Positions 4,909 to 57,310 are shown, counted from the stretch's first letter. The stretch: DNA of 64,000 nucleotides from Candidatus Woesearchaeota archaeon (GCA_018661705.1 JABJHR010000015.1:3525-67524); one strand, 5' to 3'. Numbers and translations: made by a program. The notes: generated by a model from the letters alone, not told the origin.

Positions 4909-4998
4909 GCAAAAAATAATAACATGGCCAGATGAGGCGAAGCCGAGTAGGACTTTCATAGAAAGTCCGTCTGTGCCGGTGTTGTTATTGTTTTTTGC
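4909..4998 (+). repeat. Family A GC-rich palindromic intergenic repeat, copy A1
   Basis: Core GGCCAGatgaGGCGAAGCCGAGTAGGACTTTCatagAAAGTCCGTCTGTGCC. It is flanked by the inverted A/T arms gcaaaaaataataac and gttattgttttttgc. It is shared with the copies near 13996, 28489 and 57221. Confidence 0.6.
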
Positions 4999-5028
4999 AT
5001 CTTATTATCATTTTTTATAACAACATTA

Positions 5029-5904
5029 TTATTTTAATTGTTTCTTTACTTTTGCCATTAATTTTTTTCCATAATCTTTGTTTGGTTTGCCTTTTTCATG
5101 GAAATAATCTACTTTTGCAGCCATTGAAATTGCACTTGCAAGATGTCGTGCTGCTTTTCCATGATCTTTTTGTCTTGAACTAGCAACAATTGGATGATTA
5201 ATTATAATTCCATGCTTTGGGCATGACGATCTTTTATTTTTTAGGTGTCTAAATAATGCTTTCTCTGCTCCAAGCAATTGTATAGTTGAAGAAGTCATTT
5301 CTGCAAGGTTTTCAAGGCTGCCTGCATGAGCAATTAATTCTGCACCAATTTGTGCAGTTGCAACTTCAGTTGTGTTAGGGCAAAGTTTTGCCATTAATTT
5401 TTCAATATATAACTTTTGTTTTTCTCTTAGCTTTACTAATAATGTTATTTCTGTTGCTAAAACCTTTATTTGTGTTACATCTGCTTTGTCAAGGTCTGCA
5501 CCAACACTTTTTACTCCATATTTTTTACTTAATTGTTCTTTGTTCTTATCTAATACTAATTTTGCATAAATTTCATTGTCATTAATCTGCGAATTTAGCT
5601 CTGGAAAGTATAACCCAAACCATTCTCTTAATCTTTTTCCTAGCAAATTAATAGTTCTGTTTAATTCATCAATATTATTAACAGATTGTGAGATTAAATT
5701 GTCTGTTTTAACAGAATTAATAATGTCTTTTGCAGTTTGCTTCATATTTAGTTCATAAAACTGTTTCTGAAACTCAGGTAATTTAGGAAATATAAAATCA
5801 GGATCTTCATCCATTTTTTTGGTTGTTTTTATATCTCTAGCTATCATTTTGTCTTCCTTGAACAAAAATGTGCCAATTATGTTAGTATATTGTCTTTTCT
5901 GCAT
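5029..5904 (-). CDS. nop5: Box C/D snoRNP protein Nop56/58 (Nop5), short form
   Basis: NOP domain motifs (IAHAGSLENLAEM, TIQLLGAEKALFRH, KHGIIINHPIV) and a K-rich C-terminal tail. At 291 aa it is shorter than typical archaeal Nop5, so the coiled-coil insert appears reduced. Confidence 0.8.
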   Translation of the reverse strand: MQKRQYTNIIGTFLFKEDKMIARDIKTTKKMDEDPDFIFPKLPEFQKQFYELNMKQTAKDIINSVKTDNLISQSVNNIDELNRTINLLGKRLREWFGLYFPELNSQINDNEIYAKLVLDKNKEQLSKKYGVKSVGADLDKADVTQIKVLATEITLLVKLREKQKLYIEKLMAKLCPNTTEVATAQIGAELIAHAGSLENLAEMTSSTIQLLGAEKALFRHLKNKRSSCPKHGIIINHPIVASSRQKDHGKAARHLASAISMAAKVDYFHEKGKPNKDYGKKLMAKVKKQLK

Positions 5905-6654
5905 AAAACTAATGTTTGTTCCTGTTGTTTAAAAAGTTTATTGAAAGTAAACTTTATATATCATGAGGTTGCAGCGATAAAAATGCAAGATAAATTACTT
6001 AGTTGGATTAAACCAATTGTAAATCGGAATAGTGAACTTAGAGAGGAAGTACAATATTTAAATGTAGTTTTAGGTACAAATTTACCACACGGAGCGTTAT
6101 TTGATAATTACCGTCCAGATGCGGAACTTTTTCTTAATGGTCCAGACGGTGTTCATGGTGTTGGACATTCAACTAGAGTTTTGATACTTACTGAATTACT
6201 TTCAAGGATGTATCTTGCTAATAATCCTAATTCAATTGATATAATTGCATTAAGAGAAGCAGCAAGATTTCATGATATGGGCAGAATTTATGATTCTTAT
6301 GATTCAGATCATGGTGTTCGTGGTGCTGAATTATATTTAGAAAGGAGTAATGGTCATGTTGATAGTGGAAAAGTGGCATATCTGGTAGAATGGCATGTTC
6401 CTGATGATAAACATGCACCAGAAATGATACCAGAATTAGCTATCCTCAAAGATGCAGATGCTTTAGACCGCGCAAGAGTTCAACATAAAGGTTATGGTTT
6501 AAATCCAAAATTTCTTAGAACAAAAGAAGCAAAAAAATTAATTATAACTGCAGAACATTTATTCTTGGTTAGTCACGGATTAACTTATGTTAATGGCTCT
6601 GATGAATATAGATCAGTTATTCATGCTGCAAAGGCAATAGAGATAGTAAAGTAA
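5890..6654 (+). CDS. HD-domain phosphohydrolase
   Basis: HGVGHSTRV and RFHDMGR match an H...HD metal-binding pattern. An alternative start at M32 (about 5983) would avoid the overlap with the nop5 start. Confidence 0.5.
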   Translation: MSFLHKTNVCSCCLKSLLKVNFIYHEVAAIKMQDKLLSWIKPIVNRNSELREEVQYLNVVLGTNLPHGALFDNYRPDAELFLNGPDGVHGVGHSTRVLILTELLSRMYLANNPNSIDIIALREAARFHDMGRIYDSYDSDHGVRGAELYLERSNGHVDSGKVAYLVEWHVPDDKHAPEMIPELAILKDADALDRARVQHKGYGLNPKFLRTKEAKKLIITAEHLFLVSHGLTYVNGSDEYRSVIHAAKAIEIVK

Positions 6655-6690
6655 TTGTTTGTTGAGATGTTATAATAACAAAATTTTTTA

Positions 6691-6814
6691 TTTGTGCTTT
6701 TATTTTTTAATAATAAATATTTGTGAGAAACATTGGCTCCGCCCTGGTGTAGAAGAATTATACACTGTGTGTTACTCTGCTAAATTAGGTCCGTTAGGAC
6801 ATATCATTCACTAA
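6691..6814. repeat. Family B GC-rich intergenic repeat, copy B1 (between convergent genes)
   Basis: TTTGTGCTTTT...CATTGGCTCCGCCCTGGTGTAGAAGAATTATACACTG...AGGTCCGTTAGGACATATCA. It is nearly identical in layout to the copy at 18728-18836. Confidence 0.5.
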
Positions 6815-6856
6815 TTAATTGGTTCAATATTATTGATCTCTTGTAATGGAAAAAAA

Positions 6857-7540
6857 TCAACCAAGTATAGTTCCCTTAAACTTTTTCCCTTCTAAATAAT
6901 TCTTTATATTACCTAAATCATTGCCGTTAATGATTATTACTTTCATCTTAAATTTCATACATTTCTTTGCAGCAATTGGATCAAATGGTGTGTTTTTGCC
7001 AGGAACCCATCTTCTACCAATAATATCAAGAAATTTATTCCACGTAAGTTTTTTTAATGGTTTTGCATCTTTAAATTTTCTTGGATCTTTATCATAAACA
7101 TAATCAACATTTGTTAAATTCATCATAACATTTGCTTTAATGTTGTGTGCTAATAATACTGCATCCATATCACTGCTATGGCCTGGAGAATATCCTGCCC
7201 CAATAATTATTTTTTTATTTGTTTTAATTGGATCTTCTGGATTATCAATAACTACTCTGTGTGCATCCTTGCCAAACATAATTCTAACAAGCTCTGCATT
7301 TAATCTGGTTGATTTTATACCAACCCAATCTAAATCTACATCTGTTATTTTCTTACCAACAAGGTCTTTAGCTGCACCCTGGTAAATTCTACAAGTTCTA
7401 CCACCGCCACAAACCATTGCTGCTTTGTTTCCTTTCTTTGTAAAATCTAATATTAATTTTCTAAAATTCTTTAAGAATTTAGTATCAACTTTATCTGGAA
7501 CAATCATTGAACCGCCTAATGATAATACAACTGATTTCAT
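6857..7540 (-). CDS. pyrH: Uridylate (UMP) kinase, archaeal type
   Basis: LSLGGS...VCGGG...IIGAGYSPGHSSD matches the amino-acid kinase fold in the archaeal PyrH layout. Length is about 227 aa. Confidence 0.85.
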   Translation of the reverse strand: MKSVVLSLGGSMIVPDKVDTKFLKNFRKLILDFTKKGNKAAMVCGGGRTCRIYQGAAKDLVGKKITDVDLDWVGIKSTRLNAELVRIMFGKDAHRVVIDNPEDPIKTNKKIIIGAGYSPGHSSDMDAVLLAHNIKANVMMNLTNVDYVYDKDPRKFKDAKPLKKLTWNKFLDIIGRRWVPGKNTPFDPIAAKKCMKFKMKVIIINGNDLGNIKNYLEGKKFKGTILG

Positions 7541-7621
7541 GTTTTCACCTTTTTTAATATGTTATGTTCAATATGTTATAATAATCATAAATTTAATCTT
7601 GTATTAATAATTTTGATTAGT

Positions 7622-8313: not shown

Positions 8314-8348
8314 CTTTTTTCCTTAATTAAACTATTGTAATTAATAAT

Positions 8349-11976: not shown

Positions 11977-13488
11977 TCAGGGTAAAAACACAGTAAACTT
12001 TGTTCCTTCTCCAATATCTGATTCAACATCAATTACTCCACTATGTAGTTCTATTATTTTCTTTACTATTGCTAGGCCTAAGCCTGTTCCACCTTTTTCT
12101 CTGGTCATGTAATTCTCTGCTTGATAGAATTTATCAAATAAATAAGGAAGTTTACCTTTTTCAATACCTTTTCCTGTGTCTTGAATAGAAAATTCAAAAC
12201 CTTTCTTTTGTTTTTTGGCATTAAAAATTATTTTTCCACTTTTTTCTGTAAATTTAAGAGCATTTGAAAATAAATTAATAATTACTTGCTTAAACAGGTT
12301 TTCATCAATATTAACTATAAGATTTTTTGGAATTTTATTAATAATCTTGATGCCTTTTTTCTTTGCCATTTGGTGATATACTGTTTTATCAACAATCTCA
12401 TGTAGTTTTATTTGGCTCAATTTTAATTTTTGCTTTTTTGCTTCTAACTTTGCTAAACTGAGAATATCATTTATTAGATTATTTAATCTCTCACCTTCAC
12501 TTTTTACTATTATTAATGGTTCTTTCTGTTTTTTTCCTAATTTTCCAAATTCTCCACTTAATAACAAAGAGAGGTAAAGTTTAATATTTGTAAGAGGGGT
12601 TCTTAATTCATGGCTTACAGTGCTGACAAACTCATCTTTTAATTTAGCTAGTTCTTTTTGATGTTCATATTTTTGTTTTGTTTTAGATAATTGTTCTCTT
12701 AATGTTGCTTTATCTACTAGTTTTAGAAATACAACCCTCATGAAAAACAACATTGATAATAATGGAAATGGGTGTTCCATAATAATTAATGCTTGGCTAC
12801 TTCCACCATACATTAAATAGTTCAGGAGGTTAATTATTGGGCTAACTAAGAATAGCATAAAAGCAAAAATAATTGAATTTGCATACCTCCCAGTGATTTT
12901 CCTGTGTTTTTTTGTATTAATAGAAAATATTGGATAAATGAAAACAAGGAATTTTAATGCTTCATAAAAAAAGAAACCAAGGGATTGTCTAAACCCAACA
13001 TGTGTATGGACACTTAACCAGTATAATTGAATTAATGAAGTTATAATTAAAAATCCTATGATTTGAATAAATATGTTTGATTTAAAACCTTCAAGTTTCT
13101 TTTTATGGAGTGGGTATAAAAATGCATTTGCTACTAACAGCAATGCAATTATTTCTAAAGTATTATCTATAATTGGTAAGAAAACTTCTACATTTGGGAC
13201 AGTTATATTGGTAAATGCAATGTATGTAAAAGCAATTGTAATAATTAATCTACTTATCATAAGACTAAAAAATCCAAATATTAAATATTTGAGCTCTTGT
13301 TTCCTTGATTTTCTAAATTCACTAATTAACATATAAGAAATAACAGTGAAAATAATAAATTCTACTAGGCTTTTTAATAATTCTCCATCTGTTGTGCTAA
13401 AAAATAAAGAAATTTTGTTAAATACCTGGATAGTTAATACAAGGAAAATATTCCATACAGATAATAATATTGTTGCTAAATCATTCAT
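11977..13488 (-). CDS. Membrane sensor histidine kinase
   Basis: An N-terminal region of about 270 aa with multiple TM helices. H-box VSHELRTPLT, an N-box, and G-boxes DTGKGI / GGTGLGLAI. Confidence 0.8.
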   Translation of the reverse strand: MNDLATILLSVWNIFLVLTIQVFNKISLFFSTTDGELLKSLVEFIIFTVISYMLISEFRKSRKQELKYLIFGFFSLMISRLIITIAFTYIAFTNITVPNVEVFLPIIDNTLEIIALLLVANAFLYPLHKKKLEGFKSNIFIQIIGFLIITSLIQLYWLSVHTHVGFRQSLGFFFYEALKFLVFIYPIFSINTKKHRKITGRYANSIIFAFMLFLVSPIINLLNYLMYGGSSQALIIMEHPFPLLSMLFFMRVVFLKLVDKATLREQLSKTKQKYEHQKELAKLKDEFVSTVSHELRTPLTNIKLYLSLLLSGEFGKLGKKQKEPLIIVKSEGERLNNLINDILSLAKLEAKKQKLKLSQIKLHEIVDKTVYHQMAKKKGIKIINKIPKNLIVNIDENLFKQVIINLFSNALKFTEKSGKIIFNAKKQKKGFEFSIQDTGKGIEKGKLPYLFDKFYQAENYMTREKGGTGLGLAIVKKIIELHSGVIDVESDIGEGTKFTVFLP

Positions 13489-13894
13489 TTTCTAGGTCTG
13501 GGTTACTGTTATTATTTTTATCACTATTTAAGACCTGGGTTATTACATGCTTTAATTCAACACCTTCAAAAGGTTTCATTATATAATCGTCTGCTCCAAT
13601 ATCCATGCCCATTGCTTCGTCTCTATCTTCGTTTTTAGCTGTAACCATTACTACTTTGGTATTAGCAAGTTCTGGATTTGATTTAATTTTTTTACATACC
13701 TCGTAACCATGAAGTTTTGGAATCATTAAATCAAGAATTACTATGTCTGGCTTTTTCTCTACTACTAGATTGTGGCCAGCTTCCCCATCATGTGCTAAAT
13801 GCACATCATAATCCTTTTCAAGGATCATGGCTTCTGCTTTTGCTATGTTTATATCGTCCTCAACAATCACTATGCTCTTTTTCATGATTAACAC
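13481..13894 (-). CDS. Response regulator, stand-alone receiver domain
   Basis: CheY-like layout: VEDD, phospho-acceptor D in IVILDLMIP, and a conserved T/K (VVMVTAK). It overlaps the histidine kinase start by 8 nt. Confidence 0.8.
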   Translation of the reverse strand: MLIMKKSIVIVEDDINIAKAEAMILEKDYDVHLAHDGEAGHNLVVEKKPDIVILDLMIPKLHGYEVCKKIKSNPELANTKVVMVTAKNEDRDEAMGMDIGADDYIMKPFEGVELKHVITQVLNSDKNNNSNPDLENE

Positions 13895-13995
13895 CTTTTT
13901 GTTTATGATCTTTTTCTATTCTTTTGTGTTTATATATCTTATGGAATAAAGAGATTTGTTTGAATTTTTTTATCTTTTTGTATATGGTGTATACG

Positions 13996-14094
13996 AAAAA
14001 AATAACAACAACCTTGGCACAGACAGACATTTTTTCGCTTTGCTCAAAAATATCCTACTCGGTTTCACCTCGCCTGGCCTTATTGTTATTTCTC
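13996..14094 (-). repeat. Family A GC-rich palindromic intergenic repeat, copy A4 (minus orientation)
   Basis: Reverse complement reads GGCCAGGCGAGGTGAAACCGAGTAGGATATTTTTGAGCAAAGCGAAAAAATGTCTGTCTGTGCC, with A-rich and T-rich inverted flanks. It abuts the stop of the 14086..14874 gene. Confidence 0.55.
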
Positions 14095-14874
14095 TCTAAT
14101 TAAATTTAAAAAATAAACTCTGTTGATTAAATACAACAAATATCCAAACGCAACACTACAGACAATTACAATCTTAGCAAAATTCTGCATAACTAGGATG
14201 TTTTGGCTTGTTTTAAACACAACCCCTGCTACAATGAAGTTAATCAAATAAACTACAATGTAAAATGCAATAAATGCAACTAAAAAGAATATATTAGGCA
14301 TATATGCAAAAGACTTTGATAATGATTTCAAACTAAAGCTAAAACTTTTTTTAATGCTTTTATGCTTGCAAAAACTGTAGTGGACTAAATTAACAAAAGG
14401 ATACAAGAAAAACATTAAAATTAATCCAGCTACTACAAAAATGCTTTGATGGTATTCTTGTTTTATTAAATAAGTAACTATCAATGAAATTGTAAAGTTT
14501 ATTATAATAATTATTAGAAATAATAATATGTTAAGACTCCAAAATTTTTTAAAATCAGACCATTGAAGAGGTTTTTCATTTAGATAACCAAAAACAATGT
14601 TCAGCAATTTTAATTTTGTTAGAGTATAAATAGCAGTCATTATTAATGCGTTGATTAAAACTACTATGGAAAATAAGATAATTGAGCTAAGTTCAAACCT
14701 AGTAAAAACAAAATTAGTCTGGATGCTGAATAACATTATTAATGCAATAAGTACAAGATCAACTAATATCATAAACAATATTTTGCTTGGTTTTGAGAAG
14801 AATAATTTTAATGATTGGAAAATAGTGGACTTATTGATTTTTTCTTTTATTGTAGCAAATTTACTCTTTTTCAT
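14086..14874 (-). CDS. Hypothetical polytopic membrane protein
   Basis: 262 aa with about six hydrophobic helices and no recognised motif. Confidence 0.45.
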   Translation of the reverse strand: MKKSKFATIKEKINKSTIFQSLKLFFSKPSKILFMILVDLVLIALIMLFSIQTNFVFTRFELSSIILFSIVVLINALIMTAIYTLTKLKLLNIVFGYLNEKPLQWSDFKKFWSLNILLFLIIIIINFTISLIVTYLIKQEYHQSIFVVAGLILMFFLYPFVNLVHYSFCKHKSIKKSFSFSLKSLSKSFAYMPNIFFLVAFIAFYIVVYLINFIVAGVVFKTSQNILVMQNFAKIVIVCSVAFGYLLYLINRVYFLNLIREK

Positions 14875-18727: not shown

Positions 18728-18836
18728 TTTTGTGCTTTTTCATGAGTGACATTGGCTTCGCCCTGGTGTTGAAAAGTATTACACTGCATGTTATGCTACA
18801 ACACTAGGTCCGTTAGGACATGTCACTCACTAAGAC
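18728..18836. repeat. Family B GC-rich intergenic repeat, copy B2 (between convergent genes)
   Basis: TTTGTGCTTTTtcatGAGTGACATTGGCTTCGCCCTGGTGTTGAAAAGTATTACACTG...AGGTCCGTTAGGACATGTCACTCAC. The terminal GAGTGACAT/ATGTCACTC 9-bp stem is specific to this copy. Confidence 0.5.
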
Positions 18837-18862
18837 TTTTTAATTTTTATCTTGGGTAAAAG

Positions 18863-27608: not shown

Positions 27609-28346
27609 TTGAATAAAAATAGTATGAAAAAGTATATATATCACGGGAAATTACACCTTACTATGGAAAATACAGAGGAAAGACTGAGTGTAGGGAGTTC
27701 ATTTATTGATGATTTCTTAAATGGCGGTTATGAGAAGGACATTATTACAACTATCTATGGTCCTGCAAGCAGTGGAAAAACAACTTTTTGTTTACTTGCA
27801 TGTATTTCTGCAGTAAAACAAGGTAAAAAAGTAATTTTTATAGATACTGAAGGAGGATTTTCAATTTCTAGATTTAAGCAACTTTGTGATGAAGAAGGTG
27901 TACTAGAAAATATCTTTATTCTAAAACCAACTAATTTTCAAGAACAAAATCAATCAATTACTAGGCTTAATAACATGATTAATGAACATGTTGGATTAAT
28001 AGTAGTGGATACAATTGGAATGCTATATAGGGTGGAGTATGGAAAAAAATCAAATATTAGGGATGTTAATAATTTGTTGAGCCAGCAAATTAATTTATTA
28101 ATTGAAATAACTAGAAAACATAACATTCCGGTATTATTAACAAATCAAGTGTATAGTGACTTTGAAATAAAGGATGCAGTTAAGATAGTTGGTGGCGATC
28201 TTATTAATTATGCTAGCAAATGCATGATTGAACTAAAAAAAGCAAAAGGTAGTGTAAGGGGAGCAGTCCTTAGAAAACATAGAAGTTTACCTGAAAAAAA
28301 TATTGCATTCAAGATTGTTGAAAAAGGATTTGAGATGGCAGATTAG
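27609..28346 (+). CDS. radB: RecA-superfamily ATPase, RadB/KaiC-like
   Basis: Walker A GPASSGKTTFCL, Walker B LIVVDTI, and a size of about 230 aa typical of archaeal RadB. The true start may be Met19 (MENTEERL). Confidence 0.7.
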   Translation: MNKNSMKKYIYHGKLHLTMENTEERLSVGSSFIDDFLNGGYEKDIITTIYGPASSGKTTFCLLACISAVKQGKKVIFIDTEGGFSISRFKQLCDEEGVLENIFILKPTNFQEQNQSITRLNNMINEHVGLIVVDTIGMLYRVEYGKKSNIRDVNNLLSQQINLLIEITRKHNIPVLLTNQVYSDFEIKDAVKIVGGDLINYASKCMIELKKAKGSVRGAVLRKHRSLPEKNIAFKIVEKGFEMAD

Positions 28347-28488: not shown

Positions 28489-28571
28489 ACAAAAAACAAT
28501 AAAGGCCAGGCGAAGCGAAGCTGAGTAGGACTTTTGAAAAAAGTCCGTCTGTGCCATTATTGTTGTTTTTT
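28489..28571 (+). repeat. Family A GC-rich palindromic intergenic repeat, copy A2
   Basis: caaaaaacaataaa|GGCCAGGCGAAGCGAAGCTGAGTAGGACTTTTGaaaAAAGTCCGTCTGTGCC|attattgttgttttttg. Confidence 0.6.
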
Positions 28572-28695
28572 GTTATTCTACTGTATTCTGAAAATAAACA
28601 TTAGGTCCAAAGGACGTGTTTCCCGTGATTTTTTTCTTTCTAATTATAATAAAATCATCAAAACATTTAAATAACTAATAACAAATAAACAACTT

Positions 28696-29955
28696 ATGAA
28701 AAAAGAGGAGTTTTATGCATTAATGGCTGTTATCATAGTTATTGGTGGGTTGATTGTTGTTGTATTTAGTGATTCTGACAAAGTTGGTCAAGGTATTCAA
28801 GCAGTTAGTACATTAAAAACACTTTCTGAAATTAAATGTTATGACAAAGATGATGGAATTAATTTTGAAGTTGCGAGTGAAACAGCAGGATTAATGAAAC
28901 TGCGTAATGGTCTTGAGCAATATAGTGTTAAGAAAGATGGGTGTTTAAATGAAAAAGTTGTTGAGTATTATTGCGATGCGCAATATATTAAAGTAGAACT
29001 TGGTGTTTGTGATGCAGGGAAAACTTGTATTAGTGGTAAATGTCAAAAAATGAGTATGTTAAAGAAAATTGTGCCGCCAAGAATTGATCCTTCTTTTTTA
29101 AAACCAAAAAGAAGAGTTATAGAAAAAGTATTTATTCCAAATAATTGGGTTGTTCCAGACATAGTAAGTCCTTATAAGGAATCAGGAGAAGAATGTGAAA
29201 CTCATGTAGAATGTAAAAGTAAAACCTGTACTAAACCAGTTGATCAATTAATGGATTCTGGTTCTGAAAATTATTGTGCATATATCTCTGAAGAAATTAA
29301 ATATTGGTTACAATCAGGACAACAAACACAAGCTAACAAGTTTATTAATCAAAATTTAGTTAATTTTCCAACACAAGGGAAAACTAATGAAGAAGTTTTA
29401 AAGTCAATTTCTAAATGGATTCATAATAATATTATGGATAACGTTAATTTAAGTAGTACTGAAAAAGGAGCTTATACTGCAGAAGATTATGTTTCTAATC
29501 AAATTGATGCACAAGGTTGTACGGATTTTGGTGTTATTTTTGCTGCATTTGCAAGAGCAAAAGGTTTTCCTACAATTTTAGTTGAAACTTATTCGTTAGC
29601 ATACCTTCATGAATTAGAACAAGGTAATAAACCAAACTATATTCCTGGGCATTTCTTTGCTAATGTTTATTTTGGTGGAGAATGGCATGTTTATAATCCA
29701 AATAATAATGATGGTGTGGGTGGGACAGGTACTTTTTTAACTCCAATTTATAATGAAGATTGTTTTGAGGACGATTCTTTATCTGGTCCTGAAGGTTGTT
29801 ATGAATTTGTAAATTCTTATAACGAAAATCTAGAATTAGATTATCAAAAATATGTTGTTACTAACAAAGGCCTAGATTTCTGGGATATGCATGGAGAAGG
29901 AAGTTGTATTGTTGATGCAAATACTGCATTGTTAGGGGTTTATGGATTACAGTAG
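28696..29955 (+). CDS. Secreted transglutaminase-like (Cys-His-Asp core) protein with N-terminal Cys-rich module
   Basis: N-terminal signal/TM anchor. A six-Cys module of about 70 aa (CYDKDDGIN...DGC...VEYYC...C..GK.C.SGKC) is shared with the next gene. A transglutaminase-like core follows (QGCTDFGVIFAAFARAKG ... HFFANVYFGGEWHVYNP). Confidence 0.55.
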   Translation: MKKEEFYALMAVIIVIGGLIVVVFSDSDKVGQGIQAVSTLKTLSEIKCYDKDDGINFEVASETAGLMKLRNGLEQYSVKKDGCLNEKVVEYYCDAQYIKVELGVCDAGKTCISGKCQKMSMLKKIVPPRIDPSFLKPKRRVIEKVFIPNNWVVPDIVSPYKESGEECETHVECKSKTCTKPVDQLMDSGSENYCAYISEEIKYWLQSGQQTQANKFINQNLVNFPTQGKTNEEVLKSISKWIHNNIMDNVNLSSTEKGAYTAEDYVSNQIDAQGCTDFGVIFAAFARAKGFPTILVETYSLAYLHELEQGNKPNYIPGHFFANVYFGGEWHVYNPNNNDGVGGTGTFLTPIYNEDCFEDDSLSGPEGCYEFVNSYNENLELDYQKYVVTNKGLDFWDMHGEGSCIVDANTALLGVYGLQ

Positions 29956-44858: not shown

Positions 44859-47333
44859 ATGTTTAAAAAGGGTGTTAACATGGAAGGAACTGTTGGAGAA
44901 ATATTACATATTAAAAAAAGAGACGGAGATTTAATGAATTTTGATCTTTCAAAGATTGCTGCTGCTATTTTTAGGGCAGCTAAAGAAGTTGGCGGTACAG
45001 ATCCAACGTTAGCAGATGAACTTGCAAAGGAAGTTTATTCTCATCTTAAAACAAAGGGGTTTCCAAATAATGCTCCTACAGTAGAAGAAATTCAGGATTC
45101 TATAGAAAAAGTTTTAATTGAAAAAGGGCATGCTCAAACTGCAAAAGCATTTATTCTTTATAGAGTTAAAAGGAAAAAACTTAGAGACGCAAAAACAGCA
45201 ATTGGTGTTAAAGATGATATCAAAATGACACTAAATGCCGTAAAAGTTCTAGAACGAAGATATTTACTTAAGGATAAGGATGGTAGAGTTATTGAAACTT
45301 GTGGTCAAATGTTTAGAAGGGTTGCTAGTTTTATTGCAGAAGCTGATAGAAATTATGGAGCGTCAGAAGAAAATGTAAAAGCTTGTGAAGGAGAATTTTA
45401 TGATTTAATGACAAAACTTGAGTTTTTACCAAATAGTCCTACATTTACTGGTGCAAATACTAAAGTTGGGCAATTAAGCGCTTGTTTTGTATTACCTATT
45501 GGGGATTCAATGGAAGAAATCTTTGAAGCAATTAAACAAACTGCATTAATTCACAAAAGTGGTGGTGGTACAGGATTTAGTTTTTCTCGTCTAAGACCTC
45601 ATAATGATCGTGTTTTATCTACAAAAGGGGTGGCATCTGGTCCTGTATCTTTTATGGCTGTGTTTGATGCTGCAACAGAAACAGTAAAACAAGGTGGTAC
45701 AAGAAGAGGAGCAAACATGGGGATCTTGAGAATTGATCATCCAGACATAATGGATTTTATTACAGCAAAAGAAAAAACAAATAGATTAAACAATTTTAAT
45801 ATTTCTATTGCCATTACAGATAAATTCATGGATGCTTTAGAAAAAGATGAAGAATATGAGTTGTTAAGTCCTAGAGATCAAACTGTGATAGATAAACTTA
45901 AAGCAAAAAATGTGTTTGAATTAATTGTAACTAAGGCTTGGGAAAATGGAGAACCAGGGATTATTTTTATTGATAAAATAAACAAATATAATCCTACTCC
46001 AGAAGTTGCTGAGATTGAAAGTACAAATCCTTGTGGAGAACAACCATTATTGCCTTTTGAGTCTTGTAATTTAGGTTCTATTAACCTTTCTACTACTCTT
46101 AAAGAAGAGAATGGAGAAACAAAAGTAGATTATGATAAACTTAAAAGAATTATTTATTCTGCAGTACATTTTCTTGATAATGTAATTGATATGAATAAAT
46201 TTCCTTTACTTCAAATTGAAGAAATGACTAGAGCTAATAGAAAAATAGGTCTTGGTGTTATGGGATTTGCTAACATGTTGTTAAGGTTGGGTGTTCGTTA
46301 TAATTCTGATGAAGGAATTAAAATTGCAGAAGAAGTTATGGGATTTGTTGATAGAGAATCAAAAAAAGCATCTCAGGAATTAGCTAAGAAAAGAGGGCCT
46401 TTCCCAAATTATAGTAAAAGTATTTACAAAGATGGGGAATTAATGAGAAATGCAACTACAACAACAATTGCTCCAACAGGGACATTAAGTATTCTTGCTA
46501 ATTGTTCTAGTGGTGTTGAACCATTATTTGCAATTTCTTACATTAGAAATATTATGGATAATACTGAACTTGTTGAAACAAACCCGGTGTTTTTAGATGT
46601 TGCAAAGAAAGAAGGTTTTTATTCTGAAGAATTACTAAAAAAAGTGGCAATGCAAGGTAGTATTCAAAATATGGAAGAAATTCCTGAAGAAATTAGAAAG
46701 CCGTTTGTAATTTCACACGACATTTCACCTGTTTGGCACACTAGGATGCAAGCTGCTTTCCAAAAGCATGTTGATAATGCAGTTTCAAAAACAGTTAATT
46801 TCCCAAATTCTGCAACAATTGAAGAAGTAAGAGAAGTTTATTTATTAGCTTACAAACTTGGTTGTAAAGGAGTAACTGTTTATAGGGATGGTAGTAGAGA
46901 TGAACAAGTTTTGAATATTGGTGTTGTTAATAAAGGAGATAAATCTAACCCTGTTGTTAAAGAAATAACTCCGGAAGTTATTCCAACTATAATACAAGAA
47001 ACAACAAATGATACTAGTGAAGTTAAAGAAGCAACAATTGATCCGACAGTTTCAAATGATCCTAACATTGTTGCAAATCTTCAAGCACAATCAACAGGAA
47101 ATGTCATTGATTCAAACATAACAGATTCAAATGTAATTCCTCCAACTGTAAATGTTTCAAACATAACAGCTAGTTCGGTAGCGGTTGATGCAACTAAAGA
47201 AGCTATTCTTAAGGCACAAGAAGCATTGCCAGACAAGAAAAAAATATACTGTCCAGAATGCAATGAAAAACTTACACAACAAGAAGGGTGTGTGATTTGT
47301 CCTAATTGTAGTTTTTCAGCCTGTCATATGTGA
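44859..47333 (+). CDS. nrdJ: Class II (adenosylcobalamin-dependent) ribonucleotide reductase NrdJ, with C-terminal low-complexity linker and zinc ribbon
   Basis: ATP cone (KRDGDLMNFDLSKI), catalytic-site Cys/Asn/Glu region (NPCGEQPLLPFESCNLGSINL), and C-terminal CPECN...CVICPNC. The probable true start is Met8 (44880). Confidence 0.85.
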   Translation: MFKKGVNMEGTVGEILHIKKRDGDLMNFDLSKIAAAIFRAAKEVGGTDPTLADELAKEVYSHLKTKGFPNNAPTVEEIQDSIEKVLIEKGHAQTAKAFILYRVKRKKLRDAKTAIGVKDDIKMTLNAVKVLERRYLLKDKDGRVIETCGQMFRRVASFIAEADRNYGASEENVKACEGEFYDLMTKLEFLPNSPTFTGANTKVGQLSACFVLPIGDSMEEIFEAIKQTALIHKSGGGTGFSFSRLRPHNDRVLSTKGVASGPVSFMAVFDAATETVKQGGTRRGANMGILRIDHPDIMDFITAKEKTNRLNNFNISIAITDKFMDALEKDEEYELLSPRDQTVIDKLKAKNVFELIVTKAWENGEPGIIFIDKINKYNPTPEVAEIESTNPCGEQPLLPFESCNLGSINLSTTLKEENGETKVDYDKLKRIIYSAVHFLDNVIDMNKFPLLQIEEMTRANRKIGLGVMGFANMLLRLGVRYNSDEGIKIAEEVMGFVDRESKKASQELAKKRGPFPNYSKSIYKDGELMRNATTTTIAPTGTLSILANCSSGVEPLFAISYIRNIMDNTELVETNPVFLDVAKKEGFYSEELLKKVAMQGSIQNMEEIPEEIRKPFVISHDISPVWHTRMQAAFQKHVDNAVSKTVNFPNSATIEEVREVYLLAYKLGCKGVTVYRDGSRDEQVLNIGVVNKGDKSNPVVKEITPEVIPTIIQETTNDTSEVKEATIDPTVSNDPNIVANLQAQSTGNVIDSNITDSNVIPPTVNVSNITASSVAVDATKEAILKAQEALPDKKKIYCPECNEKLTQQEGCVICPNCSFSACHM

Positions 47334-48256: not shown

Positions 48257-50350
48257 ATGCCTGTTTTAAAGGTTAGTAAAAGAGACGGAAGCCTAGTTGT
48301 TTTTAATAAAGAAAAAATATCTGGTGCTATTTTCAATGCAGCGTATGCAGTAGGAGGCTCTGATAAAGATAGGGCTGATCACCTAGCAGATATTGTTGTT
48401 AAGAAAGTTAATGAAAAATATGGGGATGAAGTTCCAACGGTAGAAGATATTCAAGATTTAGTTGAAAGAGTTTTAATTGAAGAACATCATATTAAAACTG
48501 CTAAAGCATATATCCTATATCGTGAAAAAAAGACAAGATTAAGAGAACTAAAAAAATCCTTGGTTGGAACTTTTGTAGCTAAGAAACTTAGTTATAATGC
48601 ATTAAAAATATTGAAAGAAAGATATTTGATGAAGGATGAAAATGGAGCAATTGCTGAAACCCCTTTGGGTATGTTTCGTAGAGTAGCACATAATGTTGCA
48701 AAAGCAGATAAGATTTATAACGATTTTGATCCAAAAAAATCAGAAGAGATTTTTAATGAAGCAATGGATAATCTTTATTTCTTACCAAATTCTCCTACCT
48801 TAATGAATGCAGGAACACAAATGCAACAACTTAGTGCATGTTTTGTTCTTCCAATTGAAGATTCTATTGAGAGTATTTACATGGCACTGAGAAATGCTGC
48901 CATTATCCATCAAAGTGGTGGTGGAACAGGATTTAGTTTTTCTGGTTTAAGACCAAAAGGAGACATTATTGGTTCAACAAGAGGACCTAGTTCTGGGCCA
49001 AAATCCTTTATTGAATTGTTTGATAAGTCAACAGAAATAATAAAAAAAGGTGGTAGAAGAAGGGGCGCAAATATGGGTGTTCTTAGAGTTGATCATCCTG
49101 ATGTTTTAGATTTTATCAATGCAAAAGAAAATACAGAAGTATTAACAAATTTTAATCTTTCAGTTGGATTAACAAGTAAATTTATTCAGGCACTAAAGAG
49201 AGATAACATGTATGATCTTATTAACCCTAAAACGGGAGAGGTAGTTCGTAAATTACCTGCGAGGGAAGTTTTTGATTTAATTGCAACCATGGCTTGGAAA
49301 AATGGTGAACCAGGAATACTTTTCTTAGATACTATTAATAAAGAAAATCCCTTGGCAAGTTTGGGAGAGATAAAAACAACAAATCCTTGTGGAGAAGTTC
49401 CTTTGTTACCCTATGAATCATGTAATTTAGGATCTATTAACTTATATCACATGGTTGAAGGAAAAGAAGTTGATTATGAAAAGCTAAGAAAAACAGTTTG
49501 GTTAGCGATACATTTTCTTGATAATGTTATTGAAATGAATAAATACCCACTTAAAGAAATTGAAACTATTACTAAAGCAAATAGGAAGATTGGGCTTGGT
49601 GTAATGGGTTTTTCAGATATGCTTTATAGGTTAGGAATTAAATATGATAGCGAGGAGGGTTTAAAGTTTGCTGAAAAATTAATTGGATTTATTTATGAAG
49701 AAGCAAAAAAAGCATCAATAGAACTTGCAAAGCGAAGAGGAGTTTTTACAAATTGGAAAAAAAGTAAATATGTCGAAGAAGGAATTAAACTAAGAAATGG
49801 AACACTTCTTTCAATTGCACCAACCGGAACATTAAGTATGATTGCAGATTGTAGTGGTAGTATTGAACCAAATTTTGCCTTGTCTTACATTAAACGAGTT
49901 ATGGGTGGAGAAGAATTTTTATTTGTGAACAAACATTTTGCAGATGTTGCCAGAGAAAGAGGATTTTATTCAGAGGAATTAATGAAAAAAATTGCAAATA
50001 AAGGATCAATACAAAGTTTTAGGGAAATTCCTAAAGATGTTAGAGATGTTTTTGTTACTAGTCACGATATTTCTGCAGAATATCATGTTAGAATGCAGGC
50101 TGCATTTCAGAAACATGTTGATAATGCAGTTTCTAAAAGTGTAAATCTAAGATATACTGCACAAAAAGACGATATGGCTAACATTTTTAAATTAGCACAT
50201 GAGTTGGGTTGTAAAGGAATTACTGTATATAGGGATGGTAGTAGAGATAATCAAGTTTTGAATGTTGAGTATGATAAAAATTTATCACAAAAGCAAGAAA
50301 GAAGAATTGTTAAAAAACGTAGAGTTCCTAATAAATGTGAAACTTGTTGA
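48257..50350 (+). CDS. nrdJ: Class II (adenosylcobalamin-dependent) ribonucleotide reductase NrdJ, second paralog
   Basis: ATP cone (SKRDGSLVVFNKEKI), NPCGEVPLLPYESCNLGSINL, and a C-terminal CETC tail. It is colinear with the upstream nrdJ. Confidence 0.85.
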   Translation: MPVLKVSKRDGSLVVFNKEKISGAIFNAAYAVGGSDKDRADHLADIVVKKVNEKYGDEVPTVEDIQDLVERVLIEEHHIKTAKAYILYREKKTRLRELKKSLVGTFVAKKLSYNALKILKERYLMKDENGAIAETPLGMFRRVAHNVAKADKIYNDFDPKKSEEIFNEAMDNLYFLPNSPTLMNAGTQMQQLSACFVLPIEDSIESIYMALRNAAIIHQSGGGTGFSFSGLRPKGDIIGSTRGPSSGPKSFIELFDKSTEIIKKGGRRRGANMGVLRVDHPDVLDFINAKENTEVLTNFNLSVGLTSKFIQALKRDNMYDLINPKTGEVVRKLPAREVFDLIATMAWKNGEPGILFLDTINKENPLASLGEIKTTNPCGEVPLLPYESCNLGSINLYHMVEGKEVDYEKLRKTVWLAIHFLDNVIEMNKYPLKEIETITKANRKIGLGVMGFSDMLYRLGIKYDSEEGLKFAEKLIGFIYEEAKKASIELAKRRGVFTNWKKSKYVEEGIKLRNGTLLSIAPTGTLSMIADCSGSIEPNFALSYIKRVMGGEEFLFVNKHFADVARERGFYSEELMKKIANKGSIQSFREIPKDVRDVFVTSHDISAEYHVRMQAAFQKHVDNAVSKSVNLRYTAQKDDMANIFKLAHELGCKGITVYRDGSRDNQVLNVEYDKNLSQKQERRIVKKRRVPNKCETC

Positions 50351-52539: not shown

Positions 52540-52563
52540 GTAAACTTTCATAGAGGTGAAAAG

Positions 52564-53100: not shown

Positions 53101-53118
53101 TTAATAGGTGGTGTTAAT

Positions 53119-53583: not shown

Positions 53584-53593
53584 AGGTGTAAAA

Positions 53594-54142: not shown

Positions 54143-54153
54143 TTTTATTATGA

Positions 54154-55740
54154 TTATTTTTTATTTCCTTTGCCTTTTTTGTTTTTTTTTGTTTTTTTAA
54201 TTGGTTTATTATTGATATTTTTAATTACTTTTTTCTTTGGTTTTATCTTAACTGCTTTTACAATTACTTTTTTAGTTTTTTCAACAACTCTTTTTACTGT
54301 TTTTTTAGGTTCTGTTGTTGTTTTGACTTTTTTAGAAAACTTTTCAACCTCATCAATATCCTTTTTTAAATTGTTAATTTTGGAACTTAGGTTTATTATT
54401 TCCTTGTTTATTTCATCTTTGCTTGACTTATCTTTTACTTCTTTACTTATCTTTGAGATTTGTGTTGTTATATTTGCAAGATCTTTTTCTTTCAAGGAAA
54501 TATGTGATAAAGCGTCTGTAGTTAATTCTAACTTTTCTTTTAATTTGTCTAAGTCTTTTTTACCTACAAATTCATCTAATTTACTGAGTTTTTTAGTTTC
54601 TTTTAAAAGATAACTTGTTCTTTCTTCTAATTCATCTATTTCTTTCTTTAAATTTTGGTATTTTGAAGTATTTGCTTCTAATAACTTTTCGACTTCTTTT
54701 TTTAAGACAATATTATTTTTAATTTTATCAAGGTCTTCTTTTACTTTCCCAAATTCGTTGTCAAGCTTATTAATTTCTTTCTTTGTTAAATCTTTTTTCC
54801 CTTCGGCTTTTTTAATCTTAAATTGAAGATTTTCAACAGAAAATTGTATGTCTTTGAATCTGTTTTCTGTTTTTTTAAGTTCATTTTCAAAGCTTTTCTT
54901 ATCAGTTACCTTTTCAAGAGCTTTTTTCATTTCTTCTATGTTTACAAGTGGTTTAATTGAATTAGAAAGTTTTAATATTGTACTGTTGAGTTCATTTGTT
55001 TCTGACCACACATTATTAATTTTTTTTGTTAATTCTTGTCTTTGTTCATCTATTTTTTTATTAGTTGTTTTTTCAATATTTTTTCTTGTTTTCTCAGTTT
55101 TTTCAAGTGATTTAATAGACTTGGATTGTTTTGATATCTTGTCATTAAGTCCATTTGTTTCTGACCAAACCCCGCTGATCTTTTTGTTCATTTCTTGTTT
55201 TTGTTTGTGTATTTCTTTATTTACTTCTTTTCTTGGAATAAAATTTCTCTCAACATCTTCGACTTCTACTCCAAAATTAAATAAATGGTCTAAACGTTTA
55301 TCTATTTCTTTTAAACTTCTATCTATTTTTAATGTAAATTTATTAAATTCTAACTTTTTTATGAATTTATTTTTTAAATCAGAAATTTCATTACGGAATG
55401 CAGTAACGTCATTCTTTAATCCTAATGCTTTTTTTAGTTCAGATCTTTTATATTTCTCTTTCTCTACATGTTTCATTAATTTTTTATTTAATTTGTTGCT
55501 AGACTTTACTTCTGAATCTATTCTTTTATTTATTTTGTTTGTAGTATTCTTAAGATCATCTTTTAAATCTTTTATTAGACTATTATGCTCCTTTCTAAGC
55601 TGAGTTACTTCTGCAAAAAGCTTTACATAGTCTTCTTTGCTTATGAATTTCTCATCTGAATTTTCTTTAAGTAGTTTCATATCTTTTTTTACATTAGAAA
55701 AAGCCCTAGTTACTCTTTTATCAAGTTTGTTAACATCCAT
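54154..55740 (-). CDS. Long coiled-coil protein with lysine-rich C-terminal tail
   Basis: 528 aa, almost entirely heptad-like K/E/L-rich coiled coil, with a terminal KKxK basic tail. Confidence 0.5.
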   Translation of the reverse strand: MDVNKLDKRVTRAFSNVKKDMKLLKENSDEKFISKEDYVKLFAEVTQLRKEHNSLIKDLKDDLKNTTNKINKRIDSEVKSSNKLNKKLMKHVEKEKYKRSELKKALGLKNDVTAFRNEISDLKNKFIKKLEFNKFTLKIDRSLKEIDKRLDHLFNFGVEVEDVERNFIPRKEVNKEIHKQKQEMNKKISGVWSETNGLNDKISKQSKSIKSLEKTEKTRKNIEKTTNKKIDEQRQELTKKINNVWSETNELNSTILKLSNSIKPLVNIEEMKKALEKVTDKKSFENELKKTENRFKDIQFSVENLQFKIKKAEGKKDLTKKEINKLDNEFGKVKEDLDKIKNNIVLKKEVEKLLEANTSKYQNLKKEIDELEERTSYLLKETKKLSKLDEFVGKKDLDKLKEKLELTTDALSHISLKEKDLANITTQISKISKEVKDKSSKDEINKEIINLSSKINNLKKDIDEVEKFSKKVKTTTEPKKTVKRVVEKTKKVIVKAVKIKPKKKVIKNINNKPIKKTKKNKKGKGNKK

Positions 55741-55761
55741 AATTACACCTCACTATTAAAA

Positions 55762-55847
55762 GTTTGAAAGGTTTGGAGGGTTTGAAGGGTTTGGAAGGTT
55801 TTAATAAACCTTTTTAACCTTTCATACCATTAGAACCTTTATAATCC
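55762..55847. repeat. Family C repeat: a GTTTGRARGG tandem array opposed to an AACCTTT array, copy C2
   Basis: gtttgaaaggtttggagggtttgaagggtttggaaggtttt...aaacctttttaacctttcataccattagaacctttataatcc. Confidence 0.45.
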
Positions 55848-55998
55848 TTTTATTTTCTGTTACTATAACTATAATATCTGCTTATTATATCTATTAATAT
55901 ATAAACTTTATTGTAATGTAGACGAGAAATTTGGAAATTAATTGTTGACTGGTGACGAAAAAGGGTTTTTTGTATGTTTGTTTAGATGTTTTAAAATT

Positions 55999-57177
55999 TT
56001 ACTCTTCCAATACTTTCAACGCAATTAACTCTTTCCCTTCAAATAGTTTTAAAGAAGCTCCACCACCTGTGCTGACATGGGTCATGTGTTTATCAAAACC
56101 AAATTTCTCTAATGCAGCTGCGCTGTCTCCACCACCAACAATTGTTGTTGCATTTGTTTCAGCCATTGCATCTGCAATTAGTTTTGTACCATCTGCAAAT
56201 TCTGGTTTTTCATACATGCCCATTGGTCCATTCCAAGAAATTGTTTCAGCTTGTTGAATTATAATTCTATATCTTTCTATTGTTTTTGGGCCAATGTCAA
56301 GCGCCATTTGATTATCTTGAATCTGATTAATATCTACTACCTCTGGTGTTGATTCTGGTGTTTCTGCAACAACTGCATCAATTGGTAAGGTTATTTTTGG
56401 ATTATTAAGGAATTCTTTTATTAGAAATTCATTATCTTCTGTAAATCCTTCTTTATCTATTTTTGTTTTTCCAATGTTATTTCCTGCAACTTTACAAAAT
56501 AAAAATCCTAATGAACCACCAAGAAGAATTTTATCAGCTGTTTTGAATAAATTTTGTATTGCACTAAGTTTATCTGCTTTTATCCCGCCAATAATTGAAA
56601 CAAATGGTGTTTTTGGATTTTCAATTGTACGTTTAATCATATCAAGTTCTTTTTTAATGAGTAATCCAACACATTTTTCTTCTACAAATTTTGGAACAGA
56701 AGTCATTGAAGCATGGTCACGATGACAATTACTAAATGCATCTTCAACAAATACATCCATGTCTTTTGCTAATAACTTACCAAATTCATCTCTTTCTTCT
56801 TGCAATTCAGATTTTTCATTAGGATTAAACCGTAAATTTTCTAACATGATTAAACAATTATCTGGATTATTTGCATCATGATTGCTTGTATTCCAATCAT
56901 CAATTTTTTTAATTGGCATGTCTATTAATTTACCTAATAATTCAGAAATTTTGTCTGTTTTTAAGTAAGGTTCATTATTTTTTGGTCTTCCAGCATGACA
57001 TGCAAAAATTACTTGTTTTGGCATTTGCTTAAGAATGAAATTTATTGTTGGTACTGTTAACTTTATTCTAAAATCGTTAGTTATCTCTCCTGTTTTCTCG
57101 TCTATTGGAACATTATAGTCAACTCTGATGAAAACTTTCTTATCTTTGAAGTCAATGTCTTCTACTGTTTTTAACAT
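55999..57177 (-). CDS. pgk: Phosphoglycerate kinase
   Basis: N-terminal VFIRVDYNVP, conserved GGGASLKLFEGKEL, and ATP-binding GGGDSAAA motifs. Confidence 0.9.
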   Translation of the reverse strand: MLKTVEDIDFKDKKVFIRVDYNVPIDEKTGEITNDFRIKLTVPTINFILKQMPKQVIFACHAGRPKNNEPYLKTDKISELLGKLIDMPIKKIDDWNTSNHDANNPDNCLIMLENLRFNPNEKSELQEERDEFGKLLAKDMDVFVEDAFSNCHRDHASMTSVPKFVEEKCVGLLIKKELDMIKRTIENPKTPFVSIIGGIKADKLSAIQNLFKTADKILLGGSLGFLFCKVAGNNIGKTKIDKEGFTEDNEFLIKEFLNNPKITLPIDAVVAETPESTPEVVDINQIQDNQMALDIGPKTIERYRIIIQQAETISWNGPMGMYEKPEFADGTKLIADAMAETNATTIVGGGDSAAALEKFGFDKHMTHVSTGGGASLKLFEGKELIALKVLEE

Positions 57178-57220
57178 ATCTTCACCTTTTTTAATTCCAT
57201 TATTAATTTATAGTGTTGAA

Positions 57221-57310
57221 CAAAATAACATCATGGCCAGGCGAGCCGTTAGGCGAGTAGGATATTTGCGTAGCAAATTTCCGTCTGTGCCGTTATTGTT
57301 GTTATTTTGT
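57221..57310 (+). repeat. Family A GC-rich palindromic intergenic repeat, copy A3
   Basis: acaaaataacatca|GGCCAGGCGAGCCGTTAGGCGAGTAGGATATTTGCgtaGCAAATTTCCGTCTGTGCC|gttattgttgttattttgt. Compensatory changes occur in the inner stem relative to A1 and A2. Confidence 0.6.

Follow-up and report, generated by a model that had tools for sequence, protein, structure and literature searches.

ERIC/IRU elements of the Enterobacteria and Correia/NEMIS elements of Neisseria are imperfect palindromes of about 100-150 bp that lie in transcribed intergenic regions, in either orientation, and give long RNA hairpins. The ERIC sequence is conserved across genera beyond expectation, and some copies occupy orthologous sites; Correia elements carry conserved terminal inverted repeats and a TA duplication. 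MITEs (miniature inverted-repeat transposable elements), among them the SM elements of Sulfolobus and the haloarchaeal PATEs derived from IS200/IS605, are small and non-coding; they occur in many copies between genes, end in inverted repeats, and show nested insertions and presence/absence variation among relatives. IS200/IS605 transposition itself leaves no target-site duplication. REP elements, which feature a GTAG-type tetranucleotide on their 5' side, are bacterial, as are REPINs and their RAYT partners. A REPIN is an inverted REP doublet that forms a hairpin, with conserved ends and a variable spacer (PMC3337134). Here we describe a structured repeat, called family A, found in a stretch of archaeal DNA of 64,000 nucleotides (nt) with about 30% G+C from Candidatus Woesearchaeota archaeon (GCA_018661705.1 JABJHR010000015.1:3525-67524). 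This whole stretch is referred to as the window, and its positions are counted from its first letter; coordinates with an L number belong to other loci.

Family A is present in the window as four copies, A1 to A4, which when aligned have in common a GC-rich core of 52-64 nt between two arms, A-rich on the 5' side and T/G-rich on the 3' side, that form an A/U helix of 13-17 bp. A sequence-only reading of the window had placed a shared unit at these four sites. It is present where that reading put it, and its limits and parts are now as follows (scores in bits are from a covariance model).

4909-4998, + strand: A1, whole element (-38.5 kcal/mol, z-score -5.9; 89.8 bits; 16-bp arms)
4909-4925, + strand: A1, 5' A-rich arm
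4926-4977, + strand: A1, core three-way junction (P1 5' strand 4926-4933, GGCCAGAT; GA 4934-4935; P2 hairpin 4936-4944, GGC-GAA-GCC; GAGTA 4945-4949; P3 hairpin 4950-4968; P1 3' strand 4969-4977, GTCTGTGCC, with a bulged T at 4974)
4978-4981, + strand: A1, internal loop GGTG
4982-4998, + strand: A1, 3' T/G-rich arm
13995-14096, - strand: A2, whole element (84.4 bits; 17-bp arms)
14016-14079, - strand: A2, core (P1 5' strand 14079-14072, GGCCAGGC; GA 14071-14070; P2 14069-14061, GGT-GAA-ACC; GAGTA 14060-14056; long P3 14055-14025; P1 3' strand 14024-14016)
28489-28573, + strand: A3, whole element (93.2 bits; 14-bp arms)
28504-28555, + strand: A3, core (P1 5' strand 28504-28511; GA 28512-28513; P2 28514-28522, AGC-GAA-GCT; GAGTA 28523-28527; P3 28528-28546; P1 3' strand 28547-28555)
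57220-57310, + strand: A4, whole element (92.5 bits)
57235-57291, + strand: A4, core (P1 5' strand 57235-57242; GA 57243-57244; P2 57245-57254, GCC-GTTA-GGC; GAGTA 57255-57259; P3 57260-57282; P1 3' strand 57283-57291)

The similarity between the copies goes beyond generic A/T tracts. The pattern GAGTAGGA..TT..AA..TCCGTCTGTGCC matched three times in the window against 0.00 matches expected by shuffling, and the covariance model scored A1-A4 at 84-93 bits (E-values of 1e-18 to 1e-20), with no further match when the whole window was scanned. A1-A4 are copies of one structured repeat of about 95 bases. Family A folds on one strand, is spread in many copies between genes in any orientation, and turns over between related genomes. 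On this basis, we give about an even chance to its being a dispersed, non-coding, lineage-restricted structured repeat of Woesearchaeota (DPANN), similar in kind to REP, REPIN, ERIC and Correia elements and recognised at its junction.

The core is a GC-rich three-way junction with two hairpins, set on a long A/U-rich stem. All four window copies folded beyond shuffled controls (z-scores of -4.9 to -5.9), so that folding of the core, as first read, is correct, but the single hairpin then proposed is replaced by a branched structure. The strand reading GGCCAG... folds better than its complement; for A2, the values were -32.2 kcal/mol and -13.9 kcal/mol for the opposite strand. Helix P1 is formed by GGC-CAGRY and RUCUG-U-GCC, and carries an invariant bulged U and a G.U pair. 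Its 5' strand is followed by a GA dinucleotide and then by P2, a helix of 3 bp capped by GAA, GUUA or GAUA. After P2, the strand GAGUA leads into P3 (GGAY...RUCC), which varies in length from 4 to about 14 bp and returns into P1 without a spacer. Beyond P1 come a small internal loop and an A/U-rich helix of 13-18 bp, often with a closing G-C pair. Across 60 distinct copies, the pyrimidine before the first GA and the purine after the second GA form C-G in 51 copies, U-A in 7 and U.G in 2, with no incompatible combination. From these counts, in which the U-A cases may stem from few lineages, we infer that P2 probably consists of a Watson-Crick pair, tandem G.A/A.G pairs and the 3 bp, leaving only U, A and G unpaired at the junction.

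Pairing and covariation support this fold in two alignments. In the 60-copy alignment made with the model, 97.9% of cells were paired and compensatory changes occurred at 24 of the 31 pairs; P1 covaries too, an A-U pair being replaced by G-C in 8 copies. None of 500 shuffles of this alignment matched the observed pairing, a count that is not a probability, given the relatedness of the copies and an alignment fitted to the model; slid controls reached about 48%. The structural case rests on the slid controls and on the diversity of pair types. The pattern-based alignment gave 97.5% of cells paired, with changes on both sides at 20 of the 31 pairs. Arms are complementary within a copy and different between copies and genomes: AACAAC/GTTGTT, GTGATGAT/ATCATCAC, CCATTCAT/ATGAATGG and TTACTATTCC/GGAATAGTAA, or, as RNA, AACAAC/GUUGUU, GUGAUGAU/AUCAUCAC, CCAUUCAU/AUGAAUGG and UUACUAUUCC/GGAAUAGUAA. 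All 12 arm pairs covary, and there is almost no variation in the centre. The sequence-only reading had noticed that A3 and A4 differ by compensatory changes in the long inner stem; this proved real on alignment, and the selection on structure that it was taken to indicate is strongly confirmed by both alignments. The structure of family A is under selection.

The conserved feature is the fold of one strand and not a double-stranded palindrome. Outside two nearly fixed wobble columns, G.U pairs outnumber A.C pairs by 25 to 5 (p of about 3e-4), or by 92 to 5 when these columns are counted, and covariance-model scores are about 100 bits for one strand against about 20 bits for the other. The excess of G.U over A.C indicates that one particular strand folds alone, as RNA or as single-stranded DNA. 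When copies were divided according to whether the upstream gene is co-oriented or not, the asymmetry was the same in both halves (29:1 and 33:6). In about half of the copies, transcription, if any, would give the strand that does not fold. Therefore, the strand-specific fold is not maintained by neighbouring transcription.

The family extends well beyond the window, as a search with its consensus and with the covariance model had been expected to tell. Species representatives of GTDB were scanned once with GGCCAG-N-GAGTAGG-N-GTCTGTGCC, which returned 44 loci. Exact-core matches numbered 34 in the Woesearchaeota metagenome-assembled genome (MAG) SI047_bin3, 2 in Bin_274, 3 in the Nanoarchaeota MAG Modern_marine.mb.116 and 4 in MAG SRP077602_co2_322. 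The last is labelled Methanosarcinales, yet its genes match those of the window at 51-54% and stand in the same order. Three pattern matches in high-GC bacteria lacked the fold and were discarded as chance. The covariance model, built from 47 unique copies, added 17 copies with diverged cores at the same loci, so that pattern and model together give about 60 further copies in four related archaeal MAGs. Density, where it could be estimated without bias, was 4 copies per 64 kb (window) and 3 per 21 kb (L047), which extrapolates to roughly 60-140 copies per 1-Mb genome. Over about 130 kb of other DPANN loci, four further loci from Woesearchaeota (73 kb) had no family-A copy and the remainder (about 59 kb) had one truncated copy alone; the family is also absent from IMG/VR viral contigs, annotated phages and plasmids. 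In Rfam 15, no family-A copy of the window had a match at the gathering threshold, the signal recognition particle (SRP) RNA at 1676-1950 being the sole match at that level in the window; at E-values up to 10, A3 and a hammerhead-like copy gave chance-level hits only. Family A thus matches no catalogued RNA family, and no description of it was found in the searchable literature.

Diverged variants include cores of the type CCGG/CUGG-AUGA...GAAUA and copies with a longer P1; others have a conserved extra hairpin within P2. At L047:271-409, L036:5145-5284 and L018:3912-4073, this is a hairpin of about 40 nt in the P2 loop with conserved GTGAGYGAG...CTCRCTCAC, and could represent either a nested mini-element or one more structural module. 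A second core type (type 2) retains the arms, the P1/P3 frame, the bulged U and the UA/G junction, and has a long GC-rich hairpin (GGGGGUGGGGGUUGCCCC...) in place of P2. None was found in the window; it occurs at the following sites.

L035:7881-7999, - strand: type-2 element
L033:6130-6253, + strand: type-2 element
L041:6394-6517, + strand: type-2 element
L022:162-278, + strand: type-2 element

Some family-A copies lie exactly at contig ends (L008, L044, L017, L054), and two contig ends overlap by 141 nt beside one such copy; the repeat appears to fragment MAG assemblies.

No copy lies inside a gene among the 53 that could be classified. Between co-directional genes, 15 are sense and 14 antisense; 13 lie between divergent and 11 between convergent genes. 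The first reading had all copies immediately past a gene 3' end, which holds for the four of the window but not for the family, given the 13 copies between divergent genes. Not all copies are thus at the 3' end of a transcription unit, and the spacers of alaS and of the SRP RNA in the sister genome are examples away from gene ends. A run of at least four T is found in the 3' arm of 48 of 59 copies and in the equivalent place on the other strand in 47, both being present in 45. Upstream of the 5' arm, no positional signal was detected (relative entropy of about 0 from -80 to -17 in 61 anchored copies), although promoters are conspicuous in genomes with family A, as with AAGATTTATATATAAAA before alaS. 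In many copies, the upstream stop codon stands no more than 36 nt ahead of the 5' arm or is overlapped by it. Copies are thus not genes with promoters of their own. A TATA-like box beside A4 was considered as a promoter of the element and rejected, as it lies on the other strand and belongs to pgk.

Retention and turnover were compared between related genomes. L047 and L048 belong to the same species as SI047_bin3 (the sister genome) and have gene order in common with window positions 50.5-62.3 kb. The gap-pgk spacer holds an element in the window (A4) and in the sister genome (L047:9868-9971, L007), antisense in both. The two cores, identical at 56 of 57 positions, agree in their P2 and P3 variants; about 8 arm positions differ, and outside the element the spacer does not align. 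In the same genome pair, SRP RNA is 80.7% identical, the coding sequences of gap and alaS 84% and that of pgk 72%; we calculate a probability of about 7e-5 for at most one difference in 57 positions at the SRP RNA rate. Other sites differ. In the sister genome, alaS and its divergent neighbour are separated by a copy with no counterpart in the window, and the stretch from the SRP RNA to the next promoter holds a type-2 element (L041); the window has at that place a spacer of 78 nt without it. In L049, from a more distant relative (GAPDH 81% identical), the order alaS-gap-pgk is kept, with a gap-pgk spacer of 11 nt and no element. Downstream of nop5, fibrillarin abuts in one relative, a sense copy is cut by the contig end in another, and the window has the antisense A1 together with an extra gene. 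Presence and absence of copies between relatives is thus seen at the alaS, SRP-RNA, gap-pgk and nop5 spacers.

Copies also occur within or against one another. Among about 64 copies there are 4 tight inverted doublets; 5'-truncated fragments are stacked ahead of complete copies, and one complete copy stands between the two halves of another. The check for target-site duplications, suggested with the first reading, was negative: identical flanking k-mers were found in 6 of 59 copies at k=2 (5.97 expected), in 3 at k=3 (1.9 expected) and in none at k=4 and k=5. A conserved insertion-target motif was not found either.

Genes that might mobilise family A were sought. There was no recurring protein family across about 380 kb, no mobile-element gene among the open reading frames (ORFs) of the window that were scanned, and no multi-copy or repeat-flanked nuclease in about 0.5 Mb. 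In L009, the ORF bracketed by two inverted family-A copies resembles riboflavin synthase, an assignment made by sequence resemblance and riboflavin-operon neighbours. A tblastn search with an IS608 TnpA sequence matched in L017 the transposase of the following element.

L017:5330-6010 with L044:300-441: IS200-type element of MAG SI047_bin3
L017:5417-5911: 164-residue ORF, IS200/IS605 Y1 transposase (Pfam Y1_Tnp, 1e-29; NCBIfam IS200 NF033573, 108 bits)

Against the RAYT model, with its cut-off of 80, this ORF scored 37.7 and falls below. The gene has a family-A copy about 125 nt upstream; the genomes sampled here were partial. The end hairpins of the element (GAAACGTACGGTAAATGCC...GGATAGTACGTTTC downstream, AAAAAGCGAAGCTTTTT upstream) are conserved among its homologues and unlike family A. 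These homologues, of about 144 residues and 55-75% identical, are common in DPANN metagenomes, and, if the contigs are long enough to tell, each is found at one and the same locus in different samples; near those of other DPANN genomes no family-A copy was found. Since the homologues stay at fixed loci, have IS200-type ends of their own and lack family-A neighbours, we regard the adjacency in L017 as coincidental.

How would a repeat recognised at its junction behave? New copies would be made by a trans-acting machinery that recognises the junction core and not the termini, which would leave the centre nearly invariant and the arms merely complementary; its substrate may be RNA or single-stranded DNA of the folding strand. 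The inverted pattern of conservation, the lack of duplications and the strand asymmetry independent of context argue together for a propagating or maintaining factor that reads the junction of one folded strand. Once inserted, the element would offer a long hairpin and a U-run to transcription from either side, and where it lies behind a gene, as at roughly three quarters of its sites, it would act as a transcript-end or insulator hairpin. Judging from the 45 of 59 copies with hairpin and U-run, such an effect is likely where a gene reads into the element, and it may account for the strong constraint on the gap-pgk copy. Several observations weigh against a junction-recognised repeat of this kind. 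The mobilising enzyme was not found, the only transposase in about 0.5 Mb being an ordinary IS200 with unrelated ends. With neither a target-site duplication nor an insertion motif, the case for insertion is indirect, and presence or absence was seen between fairly distant genomes only, where deletion could give the same pattern. Moreover, the identity of the orthologous gap-pgk copies, which includes stem and loop positions variable among paralogues, exceeds what is expected of a selfish repeat; 98% core identity points to host-level function, gene conversion or recent replacement. The degree of this conservation is fully explained by none of the readings testable here.

In one alternative, copies could be punctuation for compact genomes, that is, a host-evolved bidirectional transcription terminator or stabiliser of mRNA 3' ends, as had been proposed from the window. 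All four window copies and about 75% overall lie behind at least one gene 3' end, most carry the T-run on both strands, and A4, which is kept in the sister genome, falls exactly into the space from the gap stop codon to the pgk promoter. Most copies thus have the shape of a bidirectional terminator, with a stable hairpin that a T-run follows on either strand. As a general role, however, it is unlikely: between divergent genes there is nothing to terminate, and a quarter of the copies touch no gene 3' end. In archaea, oligo-T suffices for termination, which leaves the asymmetric, branched, sequence-invariant junction, conserved across genomes, and the strand-specific G.U excess unexplained. The sampled loci of other Woesearchaeota of equal compactness lack the family, and doublets and nested or truncated copies would be unexpected. 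The fold kept whatever the transcription context would instead suit a REP-like single-stranded DNA substrate, which a HUH (Y1) nuclease of RAYT/IS200 kind, present in a single copy, would cut and copy in an archaeal REP-RAYT system. The lack of target-site duplications, as in IS200/IS605 transposition, is consistent with this, as are the inverted doublets, the conserved bulged T in a GC stem, the invariant GTAG directly 5' of P3 in exact-pattern copies and the P2 and P3 loops of C-GAA-G, C-GTA-G and C-GTTA-G type, which form very stable DNA mini-hairpins. A Y1 gene with a family-A copy close by is present in the copy-rich MAG. Known REPIN-RAYT systems are maintained by vertical descent and can be recruited for attenuation (PMC3337134). 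Nevertheless, we hold this account improbable, because the Y1 gene is a standard IS200 by its model scores, with unrelated end hairpins and homologues that have no family-A copy nearby in other DPANN genomes, no multi-copy or repeat-flanked nuclease turned up in about 0.5 Mb, and the conserved tip and variable stem are the reverse of REPIN architecture.

Two RNA-based accounts fare less well. Small structured RNAs transcribed on their own, with the junction as functional domain for action in trans or protein binding, would explain conservation and covariation like those of non-coding RNAs, with stems of variable length, an optional P2 extension module and an invariant junction, as well as a core conserved beyond SRP RNA at an orthologous site. 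This is nonetheless highly unlikely: there is no positional TATA box or B recognition element upstream although promoters are easily recognised in these genomes, many copies start close to or over a stop codon, distribution is patchy with copy number differing between close relatives, and truncated and nested copies occur. The small-RNA gene family considered in the sequence-only reading is accordingly not upheld by the upstream regions. A self-cleaving ribozyme carried on the repeat, either a hammerhead variant or a new class, is scarcely credible, even though the three-way junction, the invariant junction bases and the variable stems would suit it, the tandem G.A/A.G beside P2 is a motif of hammerhead domain 2, L013:788 and L033:6011 match CUGAUGA...GAA, and some diverged copies read CUGAUGA-GGCGAAGCC-GAA. 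No hammerhead or other ribozyme model matched the hammerhead-like copy at E-values up to 10, the equivalents of C3-A6 are base-paired and covary, the A15.1-U16.1 pair is missing, and most copies have G at the positions of the invariant A14 and A6. Of the roles first suggested, the REP- or MITE-like repeat remains the best-fitting: multi-copy, intergenic spread in any orientation, restriction to a few lineages, turnover, nesting and doublets all agree with it, whereas the MITE features do not, as target-site duplications are lacking, the termini vary and the centre is conserved.

Comparison with described elements places family A closest in kind to the bacterial REP/ERIC-type elements. Like REP and REPIN sequences, it is short, high-copy, strictly intergenic and found in either orientation. 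However, these have RAYT partners and are bacterial, whereas family A is archaeal and consists of one asymmetric three-way junction on a stem, and the two REPs of a REPIN surround a variable spacer with conserved ends while here the tip is conserved and the stem varies. No RAYT was found with family A, the one Y1 gene being the unrelated IS200. Membership among REPINs was rejected, as the family-A unit is single and asymmetric and tight doublets are so few. The tetranucleotide GTAG stands directly 5' of P3 in exact-pattern copies, where the pattern required it, and is ATAG in variant copies; the junction around it has no REP equivalent. ERIC and Correia elements are near-symmetric, and family A differs from them in its strand-specific branched core, its variable termini and the lack of a duplication. 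It shares with MITEs the small size, the intergenic, non-coding, multi-copy nature, inverted-repeat ends, nested insertions and presence/absence variation, but its termini are merely complementary and not conserved, target-site duplications are lacking, and no parent element with shared ends turned up in the sampled sequence, which covers partial genomes. A PATE-like derivative of IS200/IS605 was set aside, since the ends of the resident IS200 are conserved and different from family A.

Known RNA and DNA structures were also considered and rejected. The likeness to the hammerhead lies in a three-way junction with one helix extended by tandem G.A/A.G, and a few copies read CUGAUGA...GAA; the rest of the catalytic core is absent or base-paired in family A. 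Most copies read CAGGCGA...GAG and have no Rfam hammerhead match, and the positions equivalent to C3-A6 pair and covary as CAG/CUG, CGG/CCG and GCACAU/AUGUGC. For a box C/D small RNA, the 3' strand (GUCUGUGCC) lacks a D box, and a C-box-like string occurs only in rare variants, one of which gave a weak snoRNA hit (15 bits, E-value of 5). K-turn, box C/D and loop-E readings of GA/GA and AGUA place the bulge on the wrong strand, and the Y25-R39 pair closes the tandem G.A into a regular helix. A bulge-helix-bulge at the foot of P1 does not fit in its geometry (1x2-4 internal loop, 3 bp and 1-nt bulge, on the same strand). An integron attC site was discarded because copies are scattered among nop5, gap, pgk, alaS and riboflavin genes in both orientations and no integrase was seen. 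On the features tested, family A is outside the MITE, REPIN-RAYT, hammerhead, C/D and attC families.

A more specific role for the junction is possible though rather doubtful: the bulged U, the fixed G.U pair, the tandem G.A and the UA/G bases could form the recognition or active site of an undescribed repeat-enzyme system or of a new RNA class. The former would be the first archaeal partnership of a REP-like repeat with a nuclease, through an enzyme other than a canonical RAYT. The latter would be a new class of protein-binding or catalytic RNA, estimated at no fewer than 60 copies per DPANN genome of about 1 Mb and under constraint stronger than that on SRP RNA. DPANN genomes are among the smallest and most streamlined cellular genomes, and several percent of scarce intergenic DNA spent on one repeat is unexpected. 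A fixed centre with free ends is the reverse of classical MITEs and REPINs and implies recognition aimed at the branched junction, while conservation of one copy between genera beyond SRP RNA would mean a host function or some homogenising process. In practice, family A could serve as a lineage marker, its covariance model would improve the annotation of Woesearchaeota, and the repeats appear to break MAG assemblies.

The neighbours of the window copies are ordinary housekeeping genes. A1 lies 30 nt beyond the nop5 stop and is antisense both to nop5 (5029-5904, - strand) and to a metallo-beta-lactamase (MBL)-fold gene (4259-4876, - strand), after which fibrillarin comes next. A2 is sense to both neighbours, an ORF of unknown kind (14086-14874, - strand), whose TAA stop falls within the A2 5' arm, and a response regulator (13481-13894, - strand). 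A3 had been read, with A1, as antisense to both neighbours; this is right for A1, but A3 is sense to a radA/radB-like gene (27609-28346, + strand), which it follows by 143 nt, and to a transglutaminase-like gene (28696-29955, + strand). The other antisense copy is A4, between gap (57340-58335, - strand), 29 nt past it, and pgk (55999-57177, - strand), in the space from the gap stop codon to the TATA-like box of pgk.

A second conserved intergenic motif, TTTTTTACTAGGTCC-NNN-GGACRTGTTTCYC..GGAATTTTTT, forms a short hairpin (GTCC/GGAC) flanked by T-runs. Its distance from a family-A copy is often no more than about 100 nt, in no fixed arrangement, and, as with family A, the alaS spacer has it in the sister genome but not in the window. 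It was found at two window sites and 13 more in other loci.

18795-18841, + strand: second motif
28592-28637, + strand: second motif
L017:544, L017:1697, L017:5279 and L047:6182: second motif, examples outside the window

Other features of the window were noted in passing. The nop5-fibrillarin pair (3594-5904, - strand) is split by A1 and the MBL-fold gene, which encodes 205 residues; the pair is usual in archaea, and the two genes are 1 nt apart in a relative. No tRNA gene was found in the window. At 78-224, upstream of an NAD kinase gene, a 35-nt G-rich/C-rich inverted repeat, 74% complementary with its halves 77 nt apart, is unusual for a genome with 30% G+C. Two genes for the large subunit of ribonucleotide reductase (44859-47333 and 48257-50350, + strand) enclose a corrinoid adenosyltransferase gene, and in the first of them the barrel domain is matched in two separate stretches, which may reflect an insertion such as an intein. 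Finally, the GAPDH encoded at 57340-58335 (- strand) is of bacterial type (type I); outside Woesearchaeota, the enzymes nearest to it are from bacteria and about 70% identical.

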